Shown here in pieces: positions 5,962 through 35,434 of a stretch of DNA of 38,744 nucleotides. The notes under the pieces are model-generated. The model had not been told where the DNA came from, did no database searches, and worked only from the letters and a program-made list of their open reading frames with translations. Source of the DNA: an uncultured Campylobacter sp. (GTDB lineage Bacteria > Campylobacterota > Campylobacteria > Campylobacterales > Campylobacteraceae); NCBI RefSeq assembly GCF_938018035.1, contig NZ_CALIJF010000150.1, positions 1-38,744 on the forward strand, read 5' to 3'. Made by a program: the position numbers and the translations under genes. Position 1 is the first letter of the stretch; every line of letters begins with the position of its first letter.

Positions 5962-6890
5962 AGAAGAAATTTTACTCCGCGTTTTGGCTGAAACATCTGG
6001 GCGTTTATTATATGCTCGTAGCGAGCTTTTATTTCGCGCTAAACGGCGCTTTGGCCAAGGTCATGGCGGAGCGAATGAGCAGCGCCGAGATCGTGTTTTT
6101 CCGCAACGTCGTAGGCATCGCGATCGTGCTGTTTTCGCTAAGGCGGGTAAAAAATCTGGGCCCGGGCGGCAAGCCGTGGCTGCTCGCGTTTCGCGGCTTT
6201 ATCGGCAGCTGCGGTATCTTAGCGACCTTTTACAACATCGCTCACATCGATCTTGGCACCGCTTTTACCTTCCAAAAGACGGCGCCCATTTTCACCGCGC
6301 TATTTTCGGCGTTTTTCTTAGGCGAAAAGCTAAGCTCGCGCGGTTGGTTTGCGATACTGCTGGGCTTTGGCGGGATTTTACTCGTCGTGCGCCCGCACAT
6401 CGGCATCAGCGTAACCGACGCGGTGGGAATTTTCGGCGGCATGTGCGCGGGGCTTGCATACACGAGCGTGCGCGAGCTTCGCAAACACTACGCCACCAAC
6501 CTCATCGTGCTGGTCTTCGTCTCATCCGCTACCTTTCTAAGCGCGATGATGATGGCTGCGGGCTGGGCGCTCGGTGATAGCGAGGTTAAAATTTTAGGAC
6601 TTTTCAGCGGGGCAGATTTGGCGAGGCTTGCTTACTTCAACCCGCCAAGCCTTTTTGGCTGGGTGCTCGTGGCGCTTCTGGGCGTCAGCGGGATCTACTT
6701 TCAAATTTACATGACGCGCGCCTACGCCGCTTCGCGCAAAGCGGGTATCGTCGCTGCGATCAGCTATAGCGACATTCTCTTTAGCATGGCACTCGGCATT
6801 ATGCTAGGCGATCATCTGCCCGGTCCGATCGTGCTAGCGGGCATCGCGGTGGTGATTTTAAGCGGAATTCTAATCGCTCGTGAGCGCTAA
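5958..6890 (+). CDS. DMT (EamA-like) family transporter
   Basis: About 10 hydrophobic segments; FFR, APIFTALFSAFFLGEK and LGD motifs of EamA repeats; GTG start with AGGA RBS. Confidence 0.9.
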   Translation: MKKKFYSAFWLKHLGVYYMLVASFYFALNGALAKVMAERMSSAEIVFFRNVVGIAIVLFSLRRVKNLGPGGKPWLLAFRGFIGSCGILATFYNIAHIDLGTAFTFQKTAPIFTALFSAFFLGEKLSSRGWFAILLGFGGILLVVRPHIGISVTDAVGIFGGMCAGLAYTSVRELRKHYATNLIVLVFVSSATFLSAMMMAAGWALGDSEVKILGLFSGADLARLAYFNPPSLFGWVLVALLGVSGIYFQIYMTRAYAASRKAGIVAAISYSDILFSMALGIMLGDHLPGPIVLAGIAVVILSGILIARER

Positions 6891-7040
6891 ATTTAAATCT
6901 AATTCAAATGCGGCGCAAAGCTAAATTTTATCCGCGCCGCAAGCCTACGCTAAATTTCAGCAGTCTAAAAGCTTAAAAAGACTAACATTCAAATCAAAGT
7001 TCTACGGCGTAGAAATATTTTTCGACGGATTTAAAATTTT

Positions 7041-7817
7041 ATGCATTTTATCGGTATCGACATCGGCTCTACCTCGTCAAAGGTCGCCGTTATGAACGAA
7101 CGCGGCGAATTTTGCGAGCTATTTTTGCTGCCAAGCGGCTTTAGCGCGGTCAAGGTCGCGCGCCAGATCAAGCAAGCCTTAGAGCAAAAAGGCTACGCAG
7201 AGGGCTTCGTGACGGCTACGGGCTACGGACGCGTTAGCGTAGAGTACGCGCAGCTTAGCATGAGCGAAATTTTATGCCACGGGCTTGGGGCACACTTTTT
7301 ATTTGAGCAAGACTGCACCGTCATCGATGTGGGCGGGCAAGACACCAAAGCGATCAAAATAGAAAACGGCAAACCAGCGGATTTTATCATGAACGACAAA
7401 TGCTCGGCGGGCACGGGTAAATTTTTAGAGATCAGTGCGGGCCGCTTGGGGCTTGAGCTAAGCGAAATTTACAAAACCGCCCGAAAAAATCCCGCGATTA
7501 AACTAAGCTCGACCTGCACTGTTTTTGCAGAAAGCGAGATCGTCTCGCTAAGCGCAAATGGGGCTGAAACTAGCGAGATCGCCTACGCTATCGTGGATTC
7601 CTCCGCGCACAAGGTCGCCTCACTCATCAAACGGCTGGAAAATCAAATTTACTTTTTAAGCGGCGGGCTTAGCAACGTGCCGCTCTTTAAACAGCTTCTA
7701 GGCGAGCATCTGGGGGCTGAAATTTTTACTCACGAAAACGCAATCTACTGCGGCGCGATGGGCGCTTCGCTTATCGGCGCACGCAAAGCAAACGAAATTT
7801 CAAAGGAGACGAGATGA
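7041..7817 (+). CDS. ATP-dependent [4Fe-4S] activase (HgdC/YjiL/BadF-BadG-BcrA-BcrD; DCCP-reductase type)
   Basis: GIDIGSTSSK, ATGYGR, IDVGGQDTK, MNDKCSAGTGKFLE, SSTCTVFAESE: ASKHA ATPase motifs with both cluster-ligating Cys. Confidence 0.93.
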   Translation: MHFIGIDIGSTSSKVAVMNERGEFCELFLLPSGFSAVKVARQIKQALEQKGYAEGFVTATGYGRVSVEYAQLSMSEILCHGLGAHFLFEQDCTVIDVGGQDTKAIKIENGKPADFIMNDKCSAGTGKFLEISAGRLGLELSEIYKTARKNPAIKLSSTCTVFAESEIVSLSANGAETSEIAYAIVDSSAHKVASLIKRLENQIYFLSGGLSNVPLFKQLLGEHLGAEIFTHENAIYCGAMGASLIGARKANEISKETR

Positions 7818-8923
7818 AGATGGATTTTGACGCGCTTAAAAAGCGTAACGCAATGGCTCTGCACGATCTAAAAGAGCAAGGCAAACACGTAGTTGGAATG
7901 TTTTGCACCTATTCGCCGAAGGAGCTTATTTACGCCGCGGGCGCCGTGCCGGTTGGGCTTTGCGCCTATGACGAAAGCCCGATAGATGCCGCTCATGCCG
8001 AGCTTCCGCGCAATCTTTGCCCGCTAATTAAAGCAAGCTACGGCTACGCGGTTACGAAAAAATGCCCCTATATGAACGCTAGCGATCTCGTCATAGGTGA
8101 AACGACCTGCGACGGCAAGAAAAAGATGTATGAGCTGCTTGCAAAGCATAAGGACGTCCACGTACTGCAACTGCCGAATATGACTGGCGGCAAGAGTTTG
8201 GAGCTTTTTACCGATGAGCTTAGGAAATTTCGCAAAGTTTTGGAGCAAAAATTTAATACGAAAATCACGGATGAAGCGCTACTTGATGCGGTGCAAATTT
8301 ACAACGAAGAGCGCGATGTGATGTTGGAGCTTTTAGAGCTTGGCAAACTAAATCCGATGCCGGTAGCGGGCAGCGAAATTCATCAAATTTCATTTGCGAG
8401 CGACTTCATATACGACAAGCAGGAGAAGCTTAAAATGATACGCGCCTACATAGCCGCCGCAAAGGAGATGACCCCGCCGAAAACTCGCAAAAAGCGGATC
8501 ATCATCACAGGCTGTCCAAGCGGAGGCGTGTATGAAAAGGTTATCAAGCAGATAGAGGAGCTGGGCGCGGACGTAGTGGCATTTGAAAACTGCTCCGGCA
8601 CCAAAGGCTATCAAAACCAAGTGCAAACGAAGGGCGATCTGGTAACAAATATCGCCGAGCGCTATCTCAAAATCCCCTGTTCGGTGATGTATCAAAACGA
8701 CGCACGCTCGGATATTATCAAGGAATTTATCCATGAGTATCAAGCGCACGGCGTCATCGACGTCGTGCTAAGCGGCTGCCACACCTACGCGATCGAGACG
8801 AACAAGATCAAAGAAGCCAGCCGTGAAGCTGGAGCAAACTATATGTCGCTGGAGACTGATTATTCAAAACAAGACGTCGGGCAAATTCGCACGCGCTTGG
8901 AAGCGTTTATCGAGCTACTTTAG
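7814..8923 (+). CDS. double-cubane cluster protein-like Fe-S reductase (YjiM / 2-hydroxyacyl-CoA dehydratase fold)
   Basis: FCTYSPKELIYAAGA, LPRNLCPLIK, ETTCDGKKKMYE, TGCP, ENCSG, IPCS, GCHTY, LETDYSKQDVGQIRTRLEAF. Single Cys-rich subunit with an ATGA overlap to the activase. Confidence 0.88.
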   Translation: MKMDFDALKKRNAMALHDLKEQGKHVVGMFCTYSPKELIYAAGAVPVGLCAYDESPIDAAHAELPRNLCPLIKASYGYAVTKKCPYMNASDLVIGETTCDGKKKMYELLAKHKDVHVLQLPNMTGGKSLELFTDELRKFRKVLEQKFNTKITDEALLDAVQIYNEERDVMLELLELGKLNPMPVAGSEIHQISFASDFIYDKQEKLKMIRAYIAAAKEMTPPKTRKKRIIITGCPSGGVYEKVIKQIEELGADVVAFENCSGTKGYQNQVQTKGDLVTNIAERYLKIPCSVMYQNDARSDIIKEFIHEYQAHGVIDVVLSGCHTYAIETNKIKEASREAGANYMSLETDYSKQDVGQIRTRLEAFIELL

Positions 8924-8995
8924 CGAGTCTTACTTGAAATTTTGAAATGAAGAATTTTCTAAATTTAAAAACAAACCAAAGAAAGGAGAGGTTGT

Positions 8996-9853
8996 ATGAA
9001 ATTTAAGGAGATAGACGAATCTCGTCGCGGCTTTTTAAAAGGAGCTTTAGCGGCAGCCGCCATCGCCGGACCGGAAGCAATGCTCGCTGGCTATACGCCA
9101 TTTAAGCCCGATTCGCTGCAGGTTTGGTCGTGCGGAGGACTGTCCGAAGCATTTAACGAGCTAAACGCCATTTATGAGTCAAGGACGGGACATAATATCC
9201 AATACACCGGCGCCTTTGCGGGTGCGCTCGGAAAGTCGCTACTGGCCTTGCAGGGCAAGACGGAGGTTTTCGGCGCTCGCGTTTTGGAGCTGTCTCAAAA
9301 ACTGCGTAAGGCTGGCCTTAGCCTCCGCTTTAGACCGCTATGTTTTACCGACTACGTTTTAGTAGTGCCAAAGGGCAATCCTGCGGGCGTTCGCGATCTA
9401 AAGGATTTGGCAGAGCCCGGCGTGCGGGTGATGCTGCCGCTAAGAGCTTCACCTCCTGGTAGCGGACCGGTAAAGGGAATTTTGAAAAATTCAGGTCTTA
9501 CAGGGCCCGTTATGAAAAATATGGTCGCCAACGGCTCATGCGTCATCCAGATGATGTGCGATCTGGTAGAGGGCAAGGGTGATGCGTCCATCATCGAAAA
9601 GCGCCTAACGACGCACGATAGGTTTAAAGACAAAATCGAATATATGCCTATCGACGAAAAGCTCATCCCGCCCGGTCCGCTTACATTTACGCTAAATATC
9701 ATGAAATACGTAAAAGACGAGAAGCTTGCCGATGACTTTGCGGACTTCGTCTGCTCGGACGGGCAGGAAATTTTCGAGCGGCACGGCTTTACCTCCATCC
9801 ATTCGGCACGCGGGCTTGAACTCATAGAAAGGTTTGGTGTAAAAGATGTTTAG
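8996..9853 (+). CDS. Tat-exported ModA-like (type II periplasmic binding fold) protein with five Cys
   Basis: SRRGFLK twin-arginine signal; LVVPKGNPAGVRDLKDLAEPGVRV and GQEIFERHGF are typical of the ModA/WtpA-like fold; strong AAGGAG RBS. Confidence 0.8.
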   Translation: MKFKEIDESRRGFLKGALAAAAIAGPEAMLAGYTPFKPDSLQVWSCGGLSEAFNELNAIYESRTGHNIQYTGAFAGALGKSLLALQGKTEVFGARVLELSQKLRKAGLSLRFRPLCFTDYVLVVPKGNPAGVRDLKDLAEPGVRVMLPLRASPPGSGPVKGILKNSGLTGPVMKNMVANGSCVIQMMCDLVEGKGDASIIEKRLTTHDRFKDKIEYMPIDEKLIPPGPLTFTLNIMKYVKDEKLADDFADFVCSDGQEIFERHGFTSIHSARGLELIERFGVKDV

Positions 9854-10622
9854 TATCGTAAATATGGCAAAGATGAAAAAAGTCTCTAGGCTAACTAAAA
9901 TTCGTCGATTGGTGCAGCTGATTTTTATCGGCGCGATCGGGCAATGGGCGTATTACGGAATTTTTAGATGCCCTTTTATCGTGCCTTTCGTAAACTGCCA
10001 ATCCTGTCCGATCGTTACGTGCTGGGGGCGGATCGCGACCGTGTTTTTCGGCTTTTGGCTGTTTATACCCGTGCTGGTTATTTTCCTTGGGCGCGCGTTT
10101 TGCGGCTGGCTTTGCCCGGGCGGATTCGTAAATCAAATGCTGGGCAAATTTGCCGCTTTTAAGCTCAAGCTAAAAAATAACAGGAAGCTACGATATGCGC
10201 AAATAGGCATGGTTCTAGCCTTTTTGCTTAGCGCGGGCGTGTATTTTATCTACGGCAATCCTCGCGTCATGATCCCTATCCGCACCAGCGACGAGTACTT
10301 AAACGCCGTTATCATGTCCTTTAAATTTTCCGACTGGTACTGGGCGGTTCGCACTGCCGTCGTCGTGGCCCTCATCGCCGCGTCCTTGATCGTCGCAAAT
10401 TTATGGTGCCGCTTCGCCTGTCCTAGCGGCGGCATAATGGAGCTGTTGCGTAAAATTTCAATATTTCGCGTTTATAAAACGAGCGCCTGCGATAACTGCA
10501 ACGCTTGTTTGCGCAAATGCGAAATGGGCACGAGACCGGACGAGATGAACTGCACGAACTGCGGCGATTGTATGGACGTTTGCCACGCAGACGCCATCAA
10601 ATTCGGAAGGAAAAAAGATTGA
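9846..10622 (+). CDS. NapH/MauN-like membrane 4Fe-4S protein
   Basis: About four TM segments, two CxxxCP motifs (CGWLCP, CRFACP), two CxxCxxCxxxC ferredoxin motifs at the C-terminus, and an extra N-terminal Cys cluster. The exact start Met is uncertain. Confidence 0.85.
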   Translation: MFSIVNMAKMKKVSRLTKIRRLVQLIFIGAIGQWAYYGIFRCPFIVPFVNCQSCPIVTCWGRIATVFFGFWLFIPVLVIFLGRAFCGWLCPGGFVNQMLGKFAAFKLKLKNNRKLRYAQIGMVLAFLLSAGVYFIYGNPRVMIPIRTSDEYLNAVIMSFKFSDWYWAVRTAVVVALIAASLIVANLWCRFACPSGGIMELLRKISIFRVYKTSACDNCNACLRKCEMGTRPDEMNCTNCGDCMDVCHADAIKFGRKKD

Positions 10623-11449
10623 TGAATTTTTTCGCCAAACCCTCTTTCGACAACCACCCCTGCTTTAGCAAAAAGGCGTCCGCCGCCTACGGGCGCGTGC
10701 ACCTTCCCGTAGCGCCACATTGCAATATCCAATGCAATTTTTGCAACCGCATCTACGACTGCGCCAACGAAAATCGCCCCGGCGTAACGGGGAGAGTGCA
10801 AAGCCCAGATGAGGCCGTGGAATACGTGGAAAATCTATTTAAATTTAGACAAGATATCTCTGTCATCGGTATCGCAGGGCCCGGGGATCCTATGTGCGAT
10901 GCCGACAAGACCCTAGCGACTTTTGAAAAATGCAAAGCCCGCTTCCCTCACGCCCTACTTTGCCTATCCACAAACGGCCTATCCCTGCCCGAGCACGTGG
11001 ATGATATCGTGCGGATCGGCGTGAGCCACGTGACGGTGACCGTTAATGCCGTAACGCCGGGCGTAGGCGGCAAAATTTATGCGTGGGTACGCCACAAAAA
11101 CAAAATTTACCACGGCGAAGAGGGCGCTAAAATTCTTGCGGAGCGCCAAGAGGAAGGAATTCGCAAGCTAAAAGAAGCCCGTATGATCGTAAAGATCAAT
11201 ACGGTCGTAATCCCCGGCGTCAATATGGATCACGTCCCACGTATCGCCAAAAAAGCCAAAGAGTGGCAAGCCGATATCATGAACTGCATGGCGATGATCC
11301 CCGTGCATGACACCCCTTTTGCAAATATCAAATCGCCCTCGAATGAAGAAATTCGCAGCATGCGAAAGCTGATCGGCAGCTCCATTCATCAAATGACTCA
11401 CTGCAGCAGATGCCGCGCCGACGCATGCGGCAAGCTTTGCGAGAAATGA
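10622..11449 (+). CDS. nifB: NifB-family radical SAM protein (stand-alone SAM domain, no NifX domain)
   Basis: HPC, CNIQCNFC, ENRP, AGPG, TVTVN and CSRCRADACG motifs. Start placed at ATG 10622 (TGATG coupling, GGAAGG upstream); 275 aa. Confidence 0.9.
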   Translation: MNFFAKPSFDNHPCFSKKASAAYGRVHLPVAPHCNIQCNFCNRIYDCANENRPGVTGRVQSPDEAVEYVENLFKFRQDISVIGIAGPGDPMCDADKTLATFEKCKARFPHALLCLSTNGLSLPEHVDDIVRIGVSHVTVTVNAVTPGVGGKIYAWVRHKNKIYHGEEGAKILAERQEEGIRKLKEARMIVKINTVVIPGVNMDHVPRIAKKAKEWQADIMNCMAMIPVHDTPFANIKSPSNEEIRSMRKLIGSSIHQMTHCSRCRADACGKLCEK

Positions 11450-11475
11450 AGACCTGCTTTTAGCGGGTCTTTTAT
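11449..11475 (+). terminator. probable intrinsic terminator closing the nifB cluster
   Basis: AAGACCTGCT-TTT-AGCGGGTCTT stem (one G-U pair) followed by TTAT, directly after the stop. Confidence 0.65.
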
Positions 11476-11653
11476 CCGGCGCAGGATACACGCTCTCATA
11501 GCGCACAAAATTTTATGTAGAGATTTAAATTTAAAATTTGTCTAAATTTAGAGCTAGTAAGCAACCGATAAGCGGCTTTTTAGCGGCGGCGGTTTTTTAA
11601 AATTTAAAAAACGATTTTTCAATAATATTATTTTGCTTTTATTTAACTTTGGG

Positions 11654-11659
11654 TATAAT
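11654..11659 (+). promoter_or_regulatory. sigma-70 -10 box for the flavocytochrome operon
   Basis: TATAAT after a long AT-rich tract; AAGGAG RBS at about 11705. Confidence 0.65.
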
Positions 11660-11715
11660 TCTCCCAAAATTAGGCATCTGAAAAAACCGTATAACGGTAA
11701 AATAAAGGAGACATC

Positions 11716-13266
11716 ATGGAAAACGTTTCAAGACGTGATCTGCTCAAAATGAGCCTAGTTGGCGCGGGTGCTTTAGCGCTCGGCTCCGTAAACGCAAATG
11801 CTGCGGTTAACGCTAAAGACGTCAAATTTGACGAAGAGTGGGACGTAGTCATCGTGGGCTCTGGTTTTGCAGGACTAGCAGCCGGTATCACCGCAGCCGA
11901 AAAGGGCAATAAAGTCCTAATCCTAGAAAAGATGGGACGCGTAGGCGGTAACTCCGTAATTAACGGCGGCATATTCGCCGTTCCAAACAGCGACAAACAA
12001 AAAGCAGAAGGCATCAAAGATAGCAACGAGCTATTTATCAAAGACTGCCTAAAAGCCGGCCGCGGCCTAAACCACGTAGATCTAATCGACACCATCGCTA
12101 CTCGCGCGCAAGACGCATATAAACTAACTCTAAAATGCGGCGCTAAATACATAGATAAAGTTACTCACGCAGGCGGACACAGCGTACCTAGATCGCTTCA
12201 GACCGCTAACGGCTCGGGCTCAGGTATCGTTCAGCCGATGGTAGAATACTTTAAAAATCTACAAGGCTGCGAGCTAAGACAAAGAGCTAAATTTGACGAG
12301 TTCGTACTCGGCGAAGACGGCGGCGTAGACGGAGTGATCATCAGAGAGGATTATAAATTTGATCCAAAGAGCCAAAAAGACGACGCCGAAAACACTACCG
12401 GAACTAAAAAAACTATAAAAGCTAAAAAAGGCGTAGTACTAGCTGCAGGAGGATTTTGCCGCGACGTATTCTTTAGACAAGTCCAAGATCCATCTATCTT
12501 GCCTACTACGGATAGCACCAACCATCCGGGAGCAACCGCAGGCGCTATGAAAGAGGCATTTAGAATCGGCGCAACTCCAGTGCAGCTAAGCTGGATACAA
12601 TTCGGCCCATGGGCATGCCCTGATGAAAAAGGCTTTGGCGTAGGCTCTATGTTTAACGTAAACGGAAGCTTCCGCTACGGTATCTCAGTCGATCCAAGAA
12701 CCGGCAAACGCTATATGAACGAACTAGCGGACCGCCGCACCCGCTCTCAAGCTATGTTTAAAGTAATCGACGCAAAAGCCGATATCTATCCGATCAACTT
12801 CTGCGATAGCGATGGCGTAAAAAATATGGTCATACCTGAGCACTACACCAAACCGCTAGAATCAGGCGTACTAAAGAAATTTGAAACTCTAGACGAACTA
12901 GCCGCAGCTTATAAAATCCCTGCCGCAGAGCTAAAAAAGACCGTCGAGCGATATAATAGCTTCGTTAAATCAGGCAAAGACGAAGACTTTGGCAAACCTA
13001 TGGATAAAACCACTACAAACGGCGTAGATATCTCTAAACCGCCTTTCTACGCTATGCGCGGTACGCCAAAACTCCACCACACCATGGGCGGTATCGATAT
13101 CAATACCAAAGCTCAGGTTATATCTCTACAAACAGAGATGCCGATCCCAAGACTATTTGCCGCAGGTGAGATCACAGGCGGCGTACACGGAGCTAGCCGT
13201 TTAGGTAGCGTGGCGATAGCTGACTGCTTAACGTTTGGTATGATAGCCGGAGAGAATATAGGCTAA
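11716..13266 (+). CDS. fccA: Tat-exported flavocytochrome c flavin subunit (FccA/Fcc3/UrdA-like reductase)
   Basis: SRRDLLK Tat signal; VVIVGSGFAGLAA FAD-binding motif; GGNS, GGHSVPR, HHTMGG and GEITGGVHGASRLG motifs. Confidence 0.85.
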   Translation: MENVSRRDLLKMSLVGAGALALGSVNANAAVNAKDVKFDEEWDVVIVGSGFAGLAAGITAAEKGNKVLILEKMGRVGGNSVINGGIFAVPNSDKQKAEGIKDSNELFIKDCLKAGRGLNHVDLIDTIATRAQDAYKLTLKCGAKYIDKVTHAGGHSVPRSLQTANGSGSGIVQPMVEYFKNLQGCELRQRAKFDEFVLGEDGGVDGVIIREDYKFDPKSQKDDAENTTGTKKTIKAKKGVVLAAGGFCRDVFFRQVQDPSILPTTDSTNHPGATAGAMKEAFRIGATPVQLSWIQFGPWACPDEKGFGVGSMFNVNGSFRYGISVDPRTGKRYMNELADRRTRSQAMFKVIDAKADIYPINFCDSDGVKNMVIPEHYTKPLESGVLKKFETLDELAAAYKIPAAELKKTVERYNSFVKSGKDEDFGKPMDKTTTNGVDISKPPFYAMRGTPKLHHTMGGIDINTKAQVISLQTEMPIPRLFAAGEITGGVHGASRLGSVAIADCLTFGMIAGENIG

Positions 13267-13329
13267 TTTGCGGCGTCTTTCGGACGCTTTTTGCGGAGCT
13301 TGCTAAAATTTTGCTTAGCAGACTATTTT

Positions 13330-13455
13330 GTCTAGCCTGCGCAAAATTTTAGCCACGCAACCTCAAAAATCGCCTCGAAATACTTGCAAATCTTATTTTG
13401 TATCGCAGGTCAAATTTAAGATTAAATTTGAAAATTCGGTCTGCGATACTTTTAA
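13330..13455. repeat. dispersed intergenic repeat, copy 1
   Basis: GTCTAGCCTGCGCAAAATTTTAGC...AAAAATCGCCTCGAAATACTTGCAAATCTTATTTTGTATCGCAGG...TCTGCGATACTTTTA matches 17777-17880. Confidence 0.85.
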
Positions 13456-13511
13456 ATTTGAAGCCGAATTTGCAGTTAAATTTGTAAATTTGACATCCGA
13501 AAGGAATTCGC

Positions 13512-13952
13512 ATGAAACATAAAGCGTTTCTCGCCTTGTGCGCATCTATGCTACTATGCTCTTTTGCATTTAGTGCAGAAGCCTTAGGCGCAAAGATAAC
13601 GTCTTTAGTCGATCTTAACGTCACCGATGAACTGCGAGCCAAACACCCGCTAAAGCCTCATCATGAAAAGCTAAGCTTCACCTGTCTTGATTGTCACGAA
13701 GGACAAGGAAACGACGCTAGTAAATTTAAATCTATCGGCGATAAAGGCTGTTTATCCTGTCACGGCGACAAGAAAAAGATAGCTAAAAGACTAGAATACA
13801 TGGATCTGCTAAAAGCAAATCCCCACAACTCGGTTCACGACGGCCCTACGCTATACTGCGACGAGTGCCACAACGAGCATAAAAAATCAACCAATATGTG
13901 CACGGAGTGCCACGAACACGAAGTTCCGCAATGGATGGGGGTAACGCCATGA
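13512..13952 (+). CDS. fccB: periplasmic tetraheme cytochrome c (c3-like, FccB type)
   Basis: Sec-type signal peptide and four CxxCH motifs (CLDCH, CLSCH, CDECH, CTECH), plus NPHNSVH. Confidence 0.88.
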   Translation: MKHKAFLALCASMLLCSFAFSAEALGAKITSLVDLNVTDELRAKHPLKPHHEKLSFTCLDCHEGQGNDASKFKSIGDKGCLSCHGDKKKIAKRLEYMDLLKANPHNSVHDGPTLYCDECHNEHKKSTNMCTECHEHEVPQWMGVTP

Positions 13953-14620
13953 AAATTTCAAAGAAAGTACTAGCGCTTATTATATTGGTAAGCGGCATTA
14001 TAGGGTTTTTGGTCGTACTGCCCGTACATTACACCCTAGAAGAAACTAGCGGAGAGAAGTTTTGCGTAGTATGCCACGAGATGGATCCTATGGTTATAGC
14101 TTATAGTAACGACGTACATAGCGGCAAAGGCAAAAGCGGAGTAAGGGCTAAATGCGTAGACTGCCACATACCTCACGACAACCTAGCCAAATACGTCCTA
14201 GTTAAAGCCAAAAACGGACTAATGGAGGGATATATTCATTTCTTCAAAGACCCCGAGGCTATAGACTGGCATAAAAATAGAGAGAAAAGAGAGCACTTCG
14301 TATTTGATAACGGTTGCGTTAGCTGCCATACGAATTTGGTAGATAATAAACTAACAAGCCCGCAAGCTCAAAAGATGCATGCTCACTATCAAAGCTTGCT
14401 AAATACGGGTAAGCAACTAACCTGCGCTAGCTGTCACGCCGAGGTAGGCCACAGCGGGCTAAACAATATGCTAAACTACTGGAAGCCTGAATACAAAATC
14501 TACGAAAAGAAAGCTGCAATCAAAAAAGAAGAGATAAAAAAGGCTTATTTCGGGGAGGATTATGTGGGGCCGAAAGAGGTGAAGACTGAAGATAAAGAAG
14601 GCAATGCCACCAAAAAGTAG
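13949..14620 (+). CDS. fccC: NapC/NirT-family membrane tetraheme quinol dehydrogenase (FccC type)
   Basis: N-terminal TM helix; CVVCHEM, CVDCHIP, CVSCH, CASCH. Start moved to ATG 13949 (ATGA overlap). Confidence 0.9.
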   Translation: MKISKKVLALIILVSGIIGFLVVLPVHYTLEETSGEKFCVVCHEMDPMVIAYSNDVHSGKGKSGVRAKCVDCHIPHDNLAKYVLVKAKNGLMEGYIHFFKDPEAIDWHKNREKREHFVFDNGCVSCHTNLVDNKLTSPQAQKMHAHYQSLLNTGKQLTCASCHAEVGHSGLNNMLNYWKPEYKIYEKKAAIKKEEIKKAYFGEDYVGPKEVKTEDKEGNATKK

Positions 14621-25824: not shown

Positions 25825-26169
25825 ATGGATTTTTTCACAGACTGGCAGGAGTTTGACGCAGCGGGCGCTACGGTGAAATTTTATAAAAAATCGCAAGGCG
25901 GCGTGGAGTACATCGGCTTTGATTCGCGCAAATGCGTCCCGCCCGAGCCGATGGTAAATGCGCTGGTGGCGTTAAATTTCGTAAAAGACGAAACCAAAAA
26001 GGTCGTCATGGTCAATCATAAATTCCCAATGGGACTGATCCCGAAGATCGAGTCTAAATTTGACATTGCCCGCGAGGATCTGGACGGCGACGCGGTCAAG
26101 CTCACCATCAGTCTAAAGCCCGGCGCGGTCAATGAGGGCTTCGACACCAACGCGAAGTGCCACGGCTAA
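25825..26169 (+). CDS. small protein with TusA/DUF2249-like features
   Basis: DSRKCVPPEPMVNAL and NHKFPMGLIP resemble the D-x-R...P-P-E-P and N-H/D-x-x-P-x-x-L patterns of DUF2249/TusA-like domains; C-terminal CHG. Confidence 0.6.
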   Translation: MDFFTDWQEFDAAGATVKFYKKSQGGVEYIGFDSRKCVPPEPMVNALVALNFVKDETKKVVMVNHKFPMGLIPKIESKFDIAREDLDGDAVKLTISLKPGAVNEGFDTNAKCHG

Positions 26170-26186
26170 AGGGCTTTAAAATTTAG

Positions 26187-27362
26187 ATGAATATCACGAC
26201 CTTTTCGCCGCCGTTTCGCATCGTAGGCGGCTATTTCATCTGCGGCTTTATCTTTTTGCTGTTAAGCGCGGCGAGCTTTTTAAAGGCCGATTTCGGCGCG
26301 ATCCAAGCGCCGCAGACGGCGAGCTTTTTTCACGTATTTTTGCTGGGATTTGTAATCAGCATAATCATCGGAGCGCTCTATCAGCTCACCTCCGTCATCA
26401 TCCAAAAGGAATTTTTCACCGTCAAATTTGCGTTTTTAAATCTACTCGCCTACGGCGCGAGCGTAGCGCTGCTAAGCGCGGGGTTGCTGCTTTCAAATAT
26501 CGCATTATTGCACGCAGGCGGCGCCGTTTTGCTGCTTAGTCTATTTTATTTTACGATATGCTACGCACTAAGCTTCATCGGCACGCCCAAATGGAGCTTC
26601 CCCGCCGTAGCGCTTGCGATCTCGGCTGCGTTTTTGGCGGTAGGGATCAGCCTTGGCTTTGCGCTCGTGCTAGCGCTTAGCGGCGTGGAGATTTTCGGAG
26701 TGTATTTTTCAGAAATTTTATCCTATCACATATACTTCGTGCTGGGCTTTGTGTTTTTCGTTATCGTAGGTGCCGCGTGCGTGCTGCTGCCGATGTTTAG
26801 CTTGGCGCACGATCTAAGCTTCGCGCTAGCAAAAGCTTCGCTGGCGCTGTATCTGCTAGCGGGGCTGTTTTTACTAAAAGACTTTGGAATTTTTATCGCA
26901 TTTGCCGCGCTTGCGAGCTTTGCGGCTCAGGCGATCTATATCCTAGCCAGGCGCGTGCGAAAAGCGATCGATTATTGGAATTTAAACGTCTATATCTCGC
27001 TGGCGGCTTTGGGATTTAGCGCGGCATTTTGGCTCGCGGATCGCGCGGATACGGCGGCGTTTTGGCTGCTATACGGCTTTTTGTTCGCCTTCATCGTCGC
27101 GCACCTTTATAAAATCGCGCCCTTTCTCATCTGGTACCACTACGTCTCGCCCTTCGTCGGCAAGCGCAAAATCCCTATGCTTGAGGATATGATAATCAAA
27201 AAGATCGCCTACGCAGCCTGCGTGCCGAACGTATTGGCGCTTGCGTGCGCGAGCTTTGGAGCGCTAACGCCTGCGGTGATCTTGCAAGCGGCAAGCATAA
27301 TTTTGGTGCTAATCAACATCGTAAATATCTTTAACTACATCAAATTCGGAGAGGAAAAATGA
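26187..27362 (+). CDS. polytopic membrane protein (about 12 TM) with intramembrane His; NnrS / heme-copper-oxidase-subunit-I-like
   Basis: FHVFLLGF..IIGALYQL, YHIYFVLGF, HLYKIAPFLIWYH; hydrophobic throughout. Confidence 0.6.
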   Translation: MNITTFSPPFRIVGGYFICGFIFLLLSAASFLKADFGAIQAPQTASFFHVFLLGFVISIIIGALYQLTSVIIQKEFFTVKFAFLNLLAYGASVALLSAGLLLSNIALLHAGGAVLLLSLFYFTICYALSFIGTPKWSFPAVALAISAAFLAVGISLGFALVLALSGVEIFGVYFSEILSYHIYFVLGFVFFVIVGAACVLLPMFSLAHDLSFALAKASLALYLLAGLFLLKDFGIFIAFAALASFAAQAIYILARRVRKAIDYWNLNVYISLAALGFSAAFWLADRADTAAFWLLYGFLFAFIVAHLYKIAPFLIWYHYVSPFVGKRKIPMLEDMIIKKIAYAACVPNVLALACASFGALTPAVILQAASIILVLINIVNIFNYIKFGEEK

Positions 27363-27664
27363 AAGTAACGAAGGAGCAAATTTACGACGCGCTTCGCGCC
27401 GTGGTGGACCCTGAGGTGGGCTTTGACGTCGTGTCGCTGGGGCTCATCTACGACGTAGCGGTAGATGAGGCGAACAACGCCAAAGTCACGATGACGCTAT
27501 CGACTCAGTCGTGCCCGCTGCATGAGATGATGGTAGAATGGGTGCGCGCAGGTGCCGAGAGCGTGGAAGGTATCGGCGAGGTGGAGATTGATCTCGTCTT
27601 TGAGCCGATGTGGAATATCGATATGGCGGAGGATCACGTCAAAGAGGCTCTGGGACGGTTTTAG
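27359..27664 (+). CDS. DUF59 / SufT-like metal-sulfur cluster assembly factor
   Basis: VVDPEVGFDVVSLGLIY, TLSTQSCP, LVFEPMW: the DPE...T...CP DUF59 signature. Confidence 0.92.
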   Translation: MKVTKEQIYDALRAVVDPEVGFDVVSLGLIYDVAVDEANNAKVTMTLSTQSCPLHEMMVEWVRAGAESVEGIGEVEIDLVFEPMWNIDMAEDHVKEALGRF

Positions 27665-33148: not shown

Positions 33149-35434
33149 TTAACTCTTCCAAAGTAGCGAAATTTTCTCGTCGTAGATGTCCGTTTTCTTC
33201 GGCGAAATTTCTTTCGTTTCGAGTTTAATATTTTTCAGATCCAGGCTCTGTTTTAGCGCGTCCACTTCGGCCTCAAATTTCTGTGTGAGCACCTCCAGCT
33301 CCTCTTGCAGCGCGCTTAGGCTGTTTTCGGCATTTTTGGCTTCGCTTCGTTCATTTAAAATTTTATGCGCGCTCTTGGCGCCGCTGATCGCTTTAGAGAT
33401 ATTGCTAGCGCTGCGCGAGCGGCCTAAAAACGCGCCTAAGATCGCTCCGCCTATGTTTAGCGCGGCATCCACGCCGCGACTTAGCACGTCGCCTTTTTCC
33501 TTTTCATACTTTTCGCTAGCGCGCAAAATTTTATCCTCAAGGCGCGCCTTTTCTTTCTCAAATTTAGCCGTAATCTCATCAGTTTTAGCCTCTAGAGCTT
33601 CATTTGCCTTATCGCCTAGGCGCACGAAAAACTCCTCCCTGCTCTCGCCCGGTTTTGAGAGCAGATCAAGCGCGCTAAAAAGTTCTAACCTTTCGTTGCG
33701 GTAAAGCCACTCCTTAAAGCTTTTAAGCTGAGCGTTTAAATTTTTTGCTCCCGCGATGAAGCTAGGAAGCGCGCCGTAGAGCGAGCCCGCCTGCTCCTGT
33801 CCGCTTAAATTTGCAACCTCTCGCGTGCTAGCTTCATTCCAATCTATTTCGCCCCCGTCCGAAATCGAAAGCAAAAAGGAGCGCTGCTGCGTAAAATCGA
33901 CTCCCTTGTCGCAAAATCGCATCTTTGCGCTTGCATACAGATACGGGCTTAGCTCAAGGCTCGCGCCGTAGCTGTAAAGCTGCGAAATTTCAGCAGAAAC
34001 TACGGGCTTGGCGGCGCCGGCGGATTTAACGCCTTGCGCGGCGCCGGACGAAATTTCAGCCTTTTTGTCTTTCATTAAATTTGAAATTTGTTCGTTGCTT
34101 AAAGGACCCTTTAGATAGCTTAGCGCAAAGCGCGTCTCGATTACCCGCAGCACGTCCTCGTTGATGTTTTTTACCAAAAAATTTCGCTTTTTAAGGTTTG
34201 AAATTTTTTCCATAAGCACGCTTTTGTCGATCGGATTTGAGCCGATACCGCTTAAGCCGCTGATGACGCGCTCTTTATCCTGCGCGGTCTGCAAGCGCCC
34301 GATAAACCACGTACCGATGTTGCTAAGCCCCTTGTAATCGAGATCGACCGGGTTTTGCGTCGATAATACGCAGCCAAGACCGAATGCGCGAGCCTGCTTT
34401 AGCAGCGTAAGCATCGGGGTTTTGCTCGGCGGATTGCCGTTTGGCGGGAAGAAGCCGTAAATTTCATCCATATAAAGCACTGCGCGCAAGGAACTCGTGC
34501 CGCTGGTGGTGCGCATCCATTTGATCATCTCGCCCAAAAGTAGCGTGACGAAAAACATCCTCTCATCGTCGTTTAGATGCGCGATGGAAAATATATTCGC
34601 CCTTGCTTTACCGTTTTCATCAAAGAGCATCTTGGCGATATTTAGCCGCTCGCCCTCACACCAAAGCTTAAAACTCGGGCTTGCGATGAGTGCGTTAATC
34701 TTCATCGCAAGCGCCATTCGCTTATCGCTCGGAAAGAAGGTATTAACGTCGAAAACGCCAATTTTATCGAAAGGCGGATTGCCGATCTGCGCGATGAGAT
34801 CCACCACGCTCACCCCCTCGCCTTTGTTAAAATGATAGGTTAAAATTTGGCTGATTAGTAAAAATTCCGGCGAGCTGAGATTATCGCTGCTAATCCCTGC
34901 GAGGCTTAGCACGCTAGTAGCGATACCGCCGACGTAGTTATTCAAATCCTCTTCGTTTAAGCCCTTCGGCGCTTCAAAGTCGCTTAGCAGGCTGATCCCA
35001 AGCCCTGCGCTTGATTTGGGCGTATAAATTCTAAAATCGGCGCTGTTTTTCAAAAGCTGTACTCGCGCCAGGTCTTGATATGAGCCCTCGATCCCTTCGC
35101 GCCAGGTATTTGCGGTCTGCTCGGCGAACTCGCGCACGCTAAGGCCTTTGTTTTGCGCCTCTGCCTCGTCGATATAGGGCTCAAAATCCTCAGCCCTCAT
35201 CTGCGGAAAGGTAAGAGCCAAATTCGTTAAATCGCCCTTTGGATCGATGATGATGGATGGGATATTATCGATCGCGGCTTCCTCTAGCAGCGTGATGCCA
35301 AGTCCCGTTTTACCGCTGCCGGTCATTCCGATGATAAGCGCGTGGGTCGTCAGATCCTTGTTTTTATACAAAAACGGCTCGCCGTTTTCAAGCCCCAGAT
35401 AAAAAAGCTTTAAATTTTCTTGAAGCGTTTTCAT
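33149..35434 (-). CDS. HerA/FtsK-superfamily (DUF87/DUF853-like) ATPase with C-terminal coiled coil
   Basis: THALIIGMTGSGKT (Walker A), IDPKGD, VLYMDE (Walker B), QARAFG, STQNP; extended -10 TGATATAAT at 35465-35473 on the minus strand. Confidence 0.85.
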   Translation of the reverse strand: MKTLQENLKLFYLGLENGEPFLYKNKDLTTHALIIGMTGSGKTGLGITLLEEAAIDNIPSIIIDPKGDLTNLALTFPQMRAEDFEPYIDEAEAQNKGLSVREFAEQTANTWREGIEGSYQDLARVQLLKNSADFRIYTPKSSAGLGISLLSDFEAPKGLNEEDLNNYVGGIATSVLSLAGISSDNLSSPEFLLISQILTYHFNKGEGVSVVDLIAQIGNPPFDKIGVFDVNTFFPSDKRMALAMKINALIASPSFKLWCEGERLNIAKMLFDENGKARANIFSIAHLNDDERMFFVTLLLGEMIKWMRTTSGTSSLRAVLYMDEIYGFFPPNGNPPSKTPMLTLLKQARAFGLGCVLSTQNPVDLDYKGLSNIGTWFIGRLQTAQDKERVISGLSGIGSNPIDKSVLMEKISNLKKRNFLVKNINEDVLRVIETRFALSYLKGPLSNEQISNLMKDKKAEISSGAAQGVKSAGAAKPVVSAEISQLYSYGASLELSPYLYASAKMRFCDKGVDFTQQRSFLLSISDGGEIDWNEASTREVANLSGQEQAGSLYGALPSFIAGAKNLNAQLKSFKEWLYRNERLELFSALDLLSKPGESREEFFVRLGDKANEALEAKTDEITAKFEKEKARLEDKILRASEKYEKEKGDVLSRGVDAALNIGGAILGAFLGRSRSASNISKAISGAKSAHKILNERSEAKNAENSLSALQEELEVLTQKFEAEVDALKQSLDLKNIKLETKEISPKKTDIYDEKISLLWKS

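Follow-up and report, generated by a model that had tools for sequence, protein, structure and literature searches.

The closest described relatives of the protein considered here are the NifB-NifX proteins of diazotrophs and the single-domain NifB proteins of methanogens, of which the latter also exist without nitrogenase. According to the available portions of the relevant reports, NifB of a non-diazotrophic methanogen makes an [8Fe-9S-C] cluster (bioRxiv 10.1101/2023.10.20.563283), NifB serves non-nitrogenase clients in methanogens, and L-cluster-type clusters were tied in 2025 to the activation of methyl-coenzyme M reductase (MCR) in archaea (PMC12176620). Then, could a bacterium also use NifB without a nitrogenase? 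Here, we analyse a stretch of 38,744 nt, called the window throughout, which is contig NZ_CALIJF010000150.1 from the genome of an uncultured Campylobacter sp. of gut or oral type (GCF_938018035.1) and carries a short, stand-alone NifB gene. This gene is the last of a conserved three-gene unit, hereafter the trio, which encodes a binding protein of ModA/PEB3 fold, a NapH-like membrane polyferredoxin and NifB (Table 1). The trio points to an undescribed bacterial use of NifB cluster chemistry, and it plausibly gives the window NifB a new client. No description of the trio was found in the literature as far as the accessible texts go, and such sequences may be present in supplementary material or figures, for instance in the NifB tree of PMC12176620 (Extended Data Fig. 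9c).

The six NifB motifs on which the original prediction was based could all be read in the translation and in the alignment, that is, HPC (residues 12-14), CX3CX2C (C34/C38/C41, the ligands of the radical S-adenosylmethionine (SAM) cluster), ExRP (E50-P53), AGPG (85-88), TxTxN (138-142) and CX2CRxDAxG (C261-G270). All six are also present in 14/14 trio-confirmed NifBs and in 217 of the 248 NifB-family rows used for the phylogeny below, and as a sequence pattern their joint occurrence is far beyond chance. A longer frame starting with TTG at 10505 was rejected, since it is not used by the homologues, whose alignments begin at residue 9-11. The TIGR01290 nifB model matches the protein with an E value of 6.9e-98 (328.2 bits, model positions 9-278 of 441). 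The curated cut-off is 343.65 bits, and the protein misses it by 15 bits, since it has nothing that corresponds to model positions 279-441, the linker and NifX part. The cut-off is passed by 14 orthologues of the Campylobacter concisus group (344-354 bits) and by one of the two methanogen genomes taken as a control; the latter result and the miss of the window NifB indicate that it penalises NifX-less forms. The only Pfam domain found is Radical_SAM at residues 29-211, so that the claimed absence of a NifX domain stands. By its sequence, the window protein is best classed with the NifB family, but it does not pass the functional criterion for nitrogenase cofactor biosynthesis, the co-occurrence with NifDK/NifEN-family and NifH-family proteins. 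Its closest public relatives are NifBs of uncultured Campylobacter metagenome-assembled genomes (MAGs) and a C. gracilis MAG (91-98% identical), and the identity to the C. concisus NifB is 77-79%.

The residues H12, C14, H27, C34, C38, C41, C114, C261 and C264 are universal in the 248 rows, and all of them, plus C47 (90% elsewhere), are kept at 100% in the clade of the trio NifBs. The statement that the protein is not a generic radical SAM enzyme is supported in that it lies inside the NifB family and keeps every universal NifB residue. In addition, C92 is found in 97% of the clade vs. 4% elsewhere, where Ala is usual, C222 in 100% vs. 19%, and H136 and H204 are further residues added by the clade. 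The closest structures in PDB are methanogen NifBs, namely 6Y1X of Methanothrix thermoacetophila (E 3.7e-80, 272 bits, residues 11-272) and 7BI7/7JMB of Methanothermobacter thermautotrophicus (5e-72), and the NifB of M. acetivorans (MaNifB) was also compared. In MaNifB, C30, H43, C63, C129, C274 and C277, also C264, are the ligands of the K1/K2 clusters, with numbering and roles taken from the accessible text of PMC6053413 and PMC7145814. By a constant offset, C14/C47/C114/C261/C264 and H12/H27/H204 of the window NifB would be the counterparts of MaNifB C30/C63/C129/C274/C277 and H28/H43/H219, respectively, and this mapping found no counterpart of MaNifB Cys264. The His of RVHLPVAP (His27, in RVHLPV) and the Cys of LCLSTNG (Cys114), which had been proposed as auxiliary K-cluster ligands, are thus both present and invariant in the clade, and their role as ligands is putative, as it follows from the offset.

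The likeness to methanogen NifBs that had been noted holds for the architecture, a single radical SAM domain without NifX. It does not hold for the lineage, since the window NifB is bacterial and belongs to a clade nested among bacterial NifB-NifX proteins; it also differs from methanogen NifBs in its extra C92 and C222 and in its partners, where an exported protein of binding fold and a NapH-like protein stand in place of MCR-activation proteins. With the NifB-NifX proteins of diazotrophs the catalytic domain is shared (51-58% identity to the 417-440-aa forms of Desulfomicrobium and Megalodesulfovibrio), whereas the window NifB lacks NifX and its genome lacks nifHDKEN.

The genome that contains the window (G000; 2,502,547 bases in 425 contigs) is 99.96% complete. 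A search of it for PF00148, the NifD/K/E/N family, gave 0 matches; that for PF00142, the NifH family, gave three weak P-loop matches only (best 30.5 bits, model positions 7-65); and PF02579 (NifX/NafY) had 0 matches (0/5). The presumption that this Campylobacter does not fix nitrogen therefore stands for this nearly complete genome. We further examined a family sample of 201 genomes, in which g1 denotes the genus of the window and g4 that of C. concisus. PF00148 is present in 0/51 genomes of g1 and 0/51 of g4, the carrier genera, and in 2/2 genomes of g9, 7/14 of g10 and 1/2 of g11. Full-length NifBs of 465-516 aa (511-568 bits) occur in g9, g10 and g12. The window NifB is intact and under selection in a genome without a nitrogenase-type client.

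The phylogeny was reconstructed with FastTree (248 NifB-family rows) and with IQ-TREE (LG+C20 model with posterior mean site frequencies, 75 rows), both midpoint-rooted without an outgroup. The protein falls inside the NifB family in this check, and the trio NifBs form one clade of short forms only, with 106 rows, a support of 97 and 13/14 trio-confirmed NifBs in the FastTree tree, and with 31 rows, a value of 99 in the Shimodaira-Hasegawa-like approximate likelihood ratio test (SH-aLRT) and 11/12 trio-confirmed NifBs in the IQ-TREE tree. In both trees the clade nests among NifB-NifX forms of 417-450 aa. Its small sister group consists of short bacterial NifBs and includes records labelled Anaeromyxobacteraceae and Thermodesulfobacteriota. 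The nif-type NifBs of diazotrophs of the same family are distant and belong to a different clade. The pair of Campylobacter NifBs (99) is nested stepwise in Megasphaera (95), Anaeroglobus (98), L150 (95) and Veillonella (98). Since the Campylobacter copies lie inside Veillonellaceae, transfer is likely, and a transfer of the cassette from Veillonellaceae to Campylobacter is the simplest reading.

The ratio of non-synonymous to synonymous substitutions (dN/dS) was calculated pairwise by the Nei-Gojobori method, a check which had been suggested for the Campylobacter orthologues. For NifB it is 0.097 in the C. gracilis-like group (48 distinct sequences, 1128 pairs) and 0.063 in the C. concisus group (21 sequences, 210 pairs), and for the neighbouring genes it is 0.075 (binding protein), 0.035 (NapH-like protein), 0.064 (double-cubane-cluster protein, DCCP) and 0.095 (activase). 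All three trio genes are under purifying selection. The proposed checks that were run here, phylogeny and dN/dS among them, all favour the original reading.

In the window, five genes are arranged head to tail: the activase, DCCP, the PF13531 binding protein, the NapH-like polyferredoxin and NifB. The start of the NapH-like gene overlaps the end of the binding-protein gene by 8 nt, and the ATG of NifB overlaps the TGA of the NapH-like gene by 1 nt (TGATG). The binding protein, the NapH-like protein and NifB, in this order, are translationally coupled. A scan of positions 6800-11800 for promoters and terminators revealed nothing convincing that would split or define an operon. Binding protein, NapH-like protein and NifB also form the conserved core across 80 related genome loci, with carriers in the C. 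gracilis-like group, C. concisus, Megasphaera micronuciformis (78%), Anaeroglobus geminatus (74%) and Veillonella (65%), and the genes flanking them vary between the carrier groups. A metagenome search with an alignment of distant binding-protein homologues yielded 80 loci, 67 of which have at least 1650 nt downstream of the binding-protein gene. Among these testable loci, the NapH-like gene and then NifB follow in 65, including 9 of the 11 loci whose binding protein is less than 65% identical; the exceptions are L157, where there is no NifB, and L170, where the contig ends. All three genes were found in 15/18 non-redundant loci. This conserved context, which had not been part of the original prediction, suggests a client for NifB. 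Two variations of the layout may be mentioned separately: in L144 (928-5100) a second, diverged binding protein (67%) and a NapH-like gene stand in tandem before a complete trio, and in L161 (6193-6939) a protein with an FmdE domain (PF02663) is located between the activase and the binding protein of a DCCP-linked trio.

The genes of the trio also occur together. Within the 201 genomes of the family, 32/51 genomes of g1 and 21/51 of g4 have the short NifB, and the binding protein is found in 33 genomes of g1 and 22 of g4, with no other genus having it. All 53 genomes with the short NifB have the binding protein too, and the binding protein without the short NifB occurs in G462, where the gene lies near the low-coordinate end of a contig, and in G375. 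Around Megasphaera, a phylum sample contained the binding protein in 2/301 genomes, which is too sparse for statistics, and therefore the family and class samples were used. In the class sample, consisting of 151 Negativicutes genomes, 9 have the binding protein, and in 8 of these a short NifB follows downstream at a distance of about 0.8 kb (305-336 bits). Four genomes have extra NifB paralogues (G541, G618, G548 and G551), three of them scoring 389-426 bits and that of G551 246 bits. Among the trio-bearing Negativicutes, PF00148 is absent from G196 and G633 and has a single weak match in G629; based on these counts, the trio exists both with and without nitrogenase. Where a nif-type NifB is also present, the trio NifB is an extra paralogue. 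By a hand count, more than 20 pairs of entries with matching assembly figures were shared by the top-120 lists of the binding protein and of NifB. The trio is autonomous and strict as a unit, and probably mobile by horizontal transfer.

Two further observations concern NifB and PF00148 in Negativicutes. M. micronuciformis and A. geminatus (L084-L089; G001, G002), with genomes of 1.8 Mb, have three nitrogenase-like PF00148 genes each (best E about 1e-31), and the trio copy is their single NifB. Another short NifB (frames of 276-277 aa, 305-315 bits) is found in G519, G557, G592, G604 and G644, genomes of 2.1-2.5 Mb without the binding protein of the trio and with 6-10 nitrogenase-like PF00148 matches at about 1e-64.

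The binding protein shares its fold with ModA, PEB3 and AcfC. Its predicted model (mean predicted local distance difference test (pLDDT) score 76.5) has the ModA fold with a Foldseek template-modelling (TM) score, normalised by target length, of 0.86 to 4kd5, and all three proteins are among the top matches; the nearest PDB sequences are likewise ModA and PEB3, at a weak E of about 1e-11. The score against TIGR01256 modA is 26.1 bits, under the cut-off of 62.5. The protein differs from ModA in three respects. The first is a twin-arginine motif, SRRGFLKG, with a predicted signal for twin-arginine translocation (Tat); the RR pair is kept in 116/118 free-standing and 23/24 fused homologues, PF10518 is annotated on several homologues, and in L167, L168 and L171 tatC directly follows the trio. 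The second is a set of three invariant cysteines, C46, C116 and C182, which are kept in 118/118 free-standing and 23-24/24 fused homologues. The third is the unit itself, in which no ATP-binding cassette (ABC) permease or ATPase was found at any locus inspected. The family of the binding protein is highly conserved, with an identity of 52-57% across records of Negativicutes, Syntrophus, Syntrophobacteraceae and Geobacteraceae. In the model, C46 precedes the helix 50-64, C182 precedes the helix 183-191 and C116 ends the strand 109-117. We take C46, C116 and C182 to be cleft positions, and C46 and C182 presumably stand at the helix starts that contact the oxyanion in ModA.

The NapH-like protein has about four hydrophobic helices, two CX3CP motifs and two CX2CX2CX3C motifs, the latter in a C-terminal ferredoxin domain, as in NapH, NosH and NosR. 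It differs from them in an extra, invariant four-Cys motif (C42, C51, C54 and C59) in the loop that joins helices 1 and 2. In total, 16 of its cysteines are kept without exception in 15 sequences. The NapH cut-offs are missed by a wide margin (61.4 vs. 213 bits for TIGR02163 (NapH/MauN), 58.8 vs. 234 bits for NF007013), and no nap genes (NapG, NapA) or NosZ are found nearby in the window.

A search for longer relatives of the binding protein revealed 24 fused proteins of 542-594 aa with both PF13531 and PF04055. Here, a NifB-type domain is followed by RRxF[LI]K (23/24) with a hydrophobic stretch and then by the binding-protein domain. The NifB-type domain has AGPG in 24/24, CX3CX2C in 23/24, CX2CRxDAxG in 22/24 and HPC in 18/24, the remainder starting later, and ExRP in 0/24; the binding-protein domain has both WSCGG and YTGAFA in 24/24. 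One of them, encoded in a Phycisphaerales MAG, is P0407, which shares 41% identity with the window NifB and 48% with the binding protein, and the best match of its N-terminal half is TIGR01290 (262 bits). The second domain follows NifB as NifX does in diazotrophs, whereas in these proteins it is a Tat-targeted ModA fold. No other single finding speaks as strongly as these fusions for NifB and the binding protein acting on each other.

Based on the trio sequences, we give about even chances to the reading that the exported protein receives an L-cluster-like 8Fe core made by NifB and that the NapH-like protein wires this protein to the membrane. By SAM radical chemistry, NifB would join two [4Fe-4S] units to give an L-cluster-like [8Fe-9S-C] core and hand it over, still in the cytoplasm, to the binding protein with its Cys-lined cleft. 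The hand-over would be direct, because there is neither a NifX domain nor NifEN. The loaded and folded binding protein would then be exported or membrane-anchored by the Tat pathway and may work as a periplasmic redox protein, and electrons would run in the NapH-like protein from the cytoplasmic ferredoxin domain and the CX3CP motifs to the four-Cys site on the outer loop. As to the substrate, selenite, sulfite or another small oxyanion is a reasonable guess, given the oxyanion-binder fold and the selenium genes among the neighbours. A more far-reaching version is tentative and, in our view, rather doubtful: the exported ModA-fold protein would hold a NifB-made carbide 8Fe cluster and act as a periplasmic reductase of an oxyanion or gas (selenite/sulfite-type), wired by the NapH-like protein, with the cassette being mobile between gut and oral anaerobes. 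If true, it would be the first protein to hold a nitrogenase-type cofactor core without belonging to the nitrogenase or MCR-activation families, and also the first to do so beyond the cytoplasm.

Several points weigh against a cluster on the exported protein. The type of cluster, its hand-over and the export are all inferred from sequence, as are the formation of S-adenosylhomocysteine and 5'-deoxyadenosine and the insertion of a carbide. The model of the binding protein is only moderately confident, with pLDDT falling to 52-58 around residues 71-90, and it is through its secondary structure, combined with the anatomy of ModA as we presume it, that the three cysteines would line the cleft. The topology of the NapH-like protein, with the first loop outside and the rest inside, is predicted by hydropathy and the positive-inside heuristic only, and with 16 invariant Cys this protein could itself be the client. 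We know of no precedent for a ModA-fold protein that holds an 8Fe cluster. The co-occurrence counts overstate independence, as genomes within one genus are kin. In L157 and L197 (= G616), the binding protein and the NapH-like protein have no adjacent NifB, the NapH-like gene being followed by an AhpC-type peroxiredoxin in L157 and by two small open reading frames (ORFs) without a family in L197, and in L162 the trio NifB belongs to another clade. The genome G616 has two other NifBs, and these three loci suggest that the pair needs a NifB product rather than this particular clade. A joint structure prediction of the three trio proteins, with the binding protein in its mature form, gave a score of 0.00 without controls, which speaks neither for nor against binding.

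Other explanations of the trio should be considered. Selenium-type genes recur beside it: a YedE-family putative selenium transporter (TIGR04112, 505 bits, cut-off 200) adjoins it in 6/18 non-redundant loci and lies beside or within a few kb of it in 3/7 further Negativicutes loci, a cysteine-desulfurase/SclA-like class-V enzyme (TIGR01977, 459.5 bits) is beside it in 7/18 non-redundant loci, and a PF11823 Se/S-carrier protein flanks it as well. Selenite can replace sulfite in NifB. Together with the fold, which is that of oxyanion binders, these neighbours would fit a hand-over of selenium or sulfur, in which the exported protein captures a Se/S oxyanion, the NapH-like protein reduces it and NifB, by its "ninth sulfur" chemistry, inserts S or Se into a cluster that may end up elsewhere. 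The co-occurrence of DCCP proteins with SelD, which is almost always seen according to the accessible text of the Haft preprint (10.1101/2022.07.06.499078), points in the same direction. We regard such a hand-over as unlikely, since no selenium gene is found beside the Campylobacter trios (window and C. concisus), a plain binding protein needs no Tat signal and the unit has no permease or ATPase.

The cluster might instead go to a cytoplasmic DCCP reductase, the exported and NapH-like proteins being only supporting. DCCP and its activase stand beside the trio in unrelated contexts, DCCP is commoner in trio-positive genomes than in trio-negative ones (25/33 vs. 6/18 in g1, 12/22 vs. 8/29 in g4), and both clusters are 8Fe-9S in composition (PMC7317905, available text). 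On the other hand, no DCCP is detected at E <= 1e-60 in 18/55 trio-positive family genomes; the trio persists in four genomes that retain only DCCP remnants of 84-112 aa (about 100 aa from the C-terminus just upstream of the trio in G435 and G329, remnants with stops in G479 and G470) and in one Veillonella genome without any HGD-D family match, all three trio genes being matched in these five genomes. DCCP is also common without the trio, and E. coli gives matches in the control. Moreover, the Carboxydothermus DCCP made in E. coli reportedly carried its cluster without any NifB. A supply of DCCP by NifB therefore seems quite unlikely, and an obligate NifB-DCCP pair was rejected. Nor do we think it probable that NifB matures the NapH-like protein by placing an unusual cluster at its extra four-Cys and CX3CP motifs, with the exported protein as the periplasmic partner; the 16 invariant Cys, and the position of the gene, always between the other two and coupled to NifB in translation, would agree with this, but the fusions join NifB to the binding protein instead, and the Tat signal and invariant Cys of the latter would be left unexplained. 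Finally, it is hardly credible that the NifB gene is left over from a lost nif cluster and decaying, or that its product is a generic radical SAM enzyme without cluster fusion. Damaged copies do exist, namely NifB frames of 240 aa whose match ends at model position 235-237 (G425, G497) and a split binding-protein gene (G443), and the window NifB is under the TIGR01290 cut-off, but the shortfall comes from the missing NifX part and the C. concisus-group orthologues pass; dN/dS is 0.06-0.10, no NifB-specific residue varies within the clade, which counts about 100 sequences and spans several phyla, the linkage to two partner genes is strict, and the nif-type NifBs of diazotrophs in the same family are in a different clade. 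Among these explanations, a NifB-made core for the exported binding protein is the reading that we prefer.

Table 1. Features of the window around the NifB gene, in order of position.
Feature	Position	Strand	Description
Acyl-CoA dehydratase/DCCP-type ATP-dependent activase	7041..7817	+	258 aa; TIGR00241 224.1 bits (cut-off 125.4)
Double-cubane-cluster protein DCCP (anaerobic reductase type)	7814..8923	+	369 aa; NF040772 482.7 bits (cut-off 350)
ModA/PEB3-fold binding protein	8996..9853	+	285 aa; PF13531 at 2.6e-39; proposed NifB client
NapH-like membrane polyferredoxin	9846..10622	+	258 aa; Pfam Fer4_5; TIGR02163 61.4 bits
Stand-alone NifB-family radical SAM enzyme	10622..11449	+	275 aa; last gene of the trio; ATG at 10622, stop 11447-11449

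The two genes upstream of the trio in the window, of which the activase overlaps the start of DCCP by 4 nt at its end, are full members of the DCCP/DCCP-R families but stand outside the conserved core. They adjoin the trio in this window and in L158, which carries two DCCPs (463.8 and 442.9 bits), L159, L161 and L196, and are absent from most trio loci. DCCP with its activase and the selenium-type genes are thus recurrent but dispensable neighbours. Among the loci L010, L019, L035, L043, L048, L051, L011, L016 and L037, DCCP was undetected in six, with the activase directly upstream of the binding-protein gene in the DCCP-less loci, and in other loci a second allele class of DCCP (77-80% identity) replaces the usual one (94-99%). 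In its available text, the Haft preprint (10.1101/2022.07.06.499078) links DCCP to selenium, not to NifB, and the 7-Cys spacing pattern given there, used as a regular expression, has no match in the window DCCP, although the NF040772 score of this protein is well over the cut-off; the pattern was set aside. The accessible text of the DCCP review (PMC7317905) makes no mention of NifB, radical SAM or operons.

The genes directly downstream of the trio (positions 11716-14620) together have the look of a periplasmic reductase module; their products are a flavocytochrome c with a Tat signal (TIGR01813, 461.7 bits), a protein resembling cytochrome c3 and a tetrahaem protein of NrfH/NapC-like type. 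In L004, L017, L038 and L048, neither cytochrome gene was found in the stretch from the flavoprotein gene to proB, and some relatives have an allele of the flavoprotein with 88% identity. Elsewhere in the window, positions 25825-27664 contain ORFs of 114 and 391 aa without a Pfam match, then, with a 4-nt overlap, a 101-aa protein of PF01883, an iron-sulfur cluster assembly family, and positions 33149-35434 encode a 760-aa protein with a weak HerA/DUF87 P-loop match at the N-terminus only.

A bacterial NifB without nitrogenase, tied to an exported, Cys-lined protein, would be a new use of this enzyme: the order, co-occurrence and fusion of the trio genes in nitrogenase-free genomes would give NifB cluster chemistry a third kind of client, and in a new cellular location. 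Since some carriers are human-associated bacteria that can be cultivated (C. concisus, Veillonella and Megasphaera), the question of the client of the NifB cofactor (NifB-co) is testable at the bench. For the gut and oral metagenomes, the trio is also a warning that nifB alone is a poor marker of nitrogen fixation.

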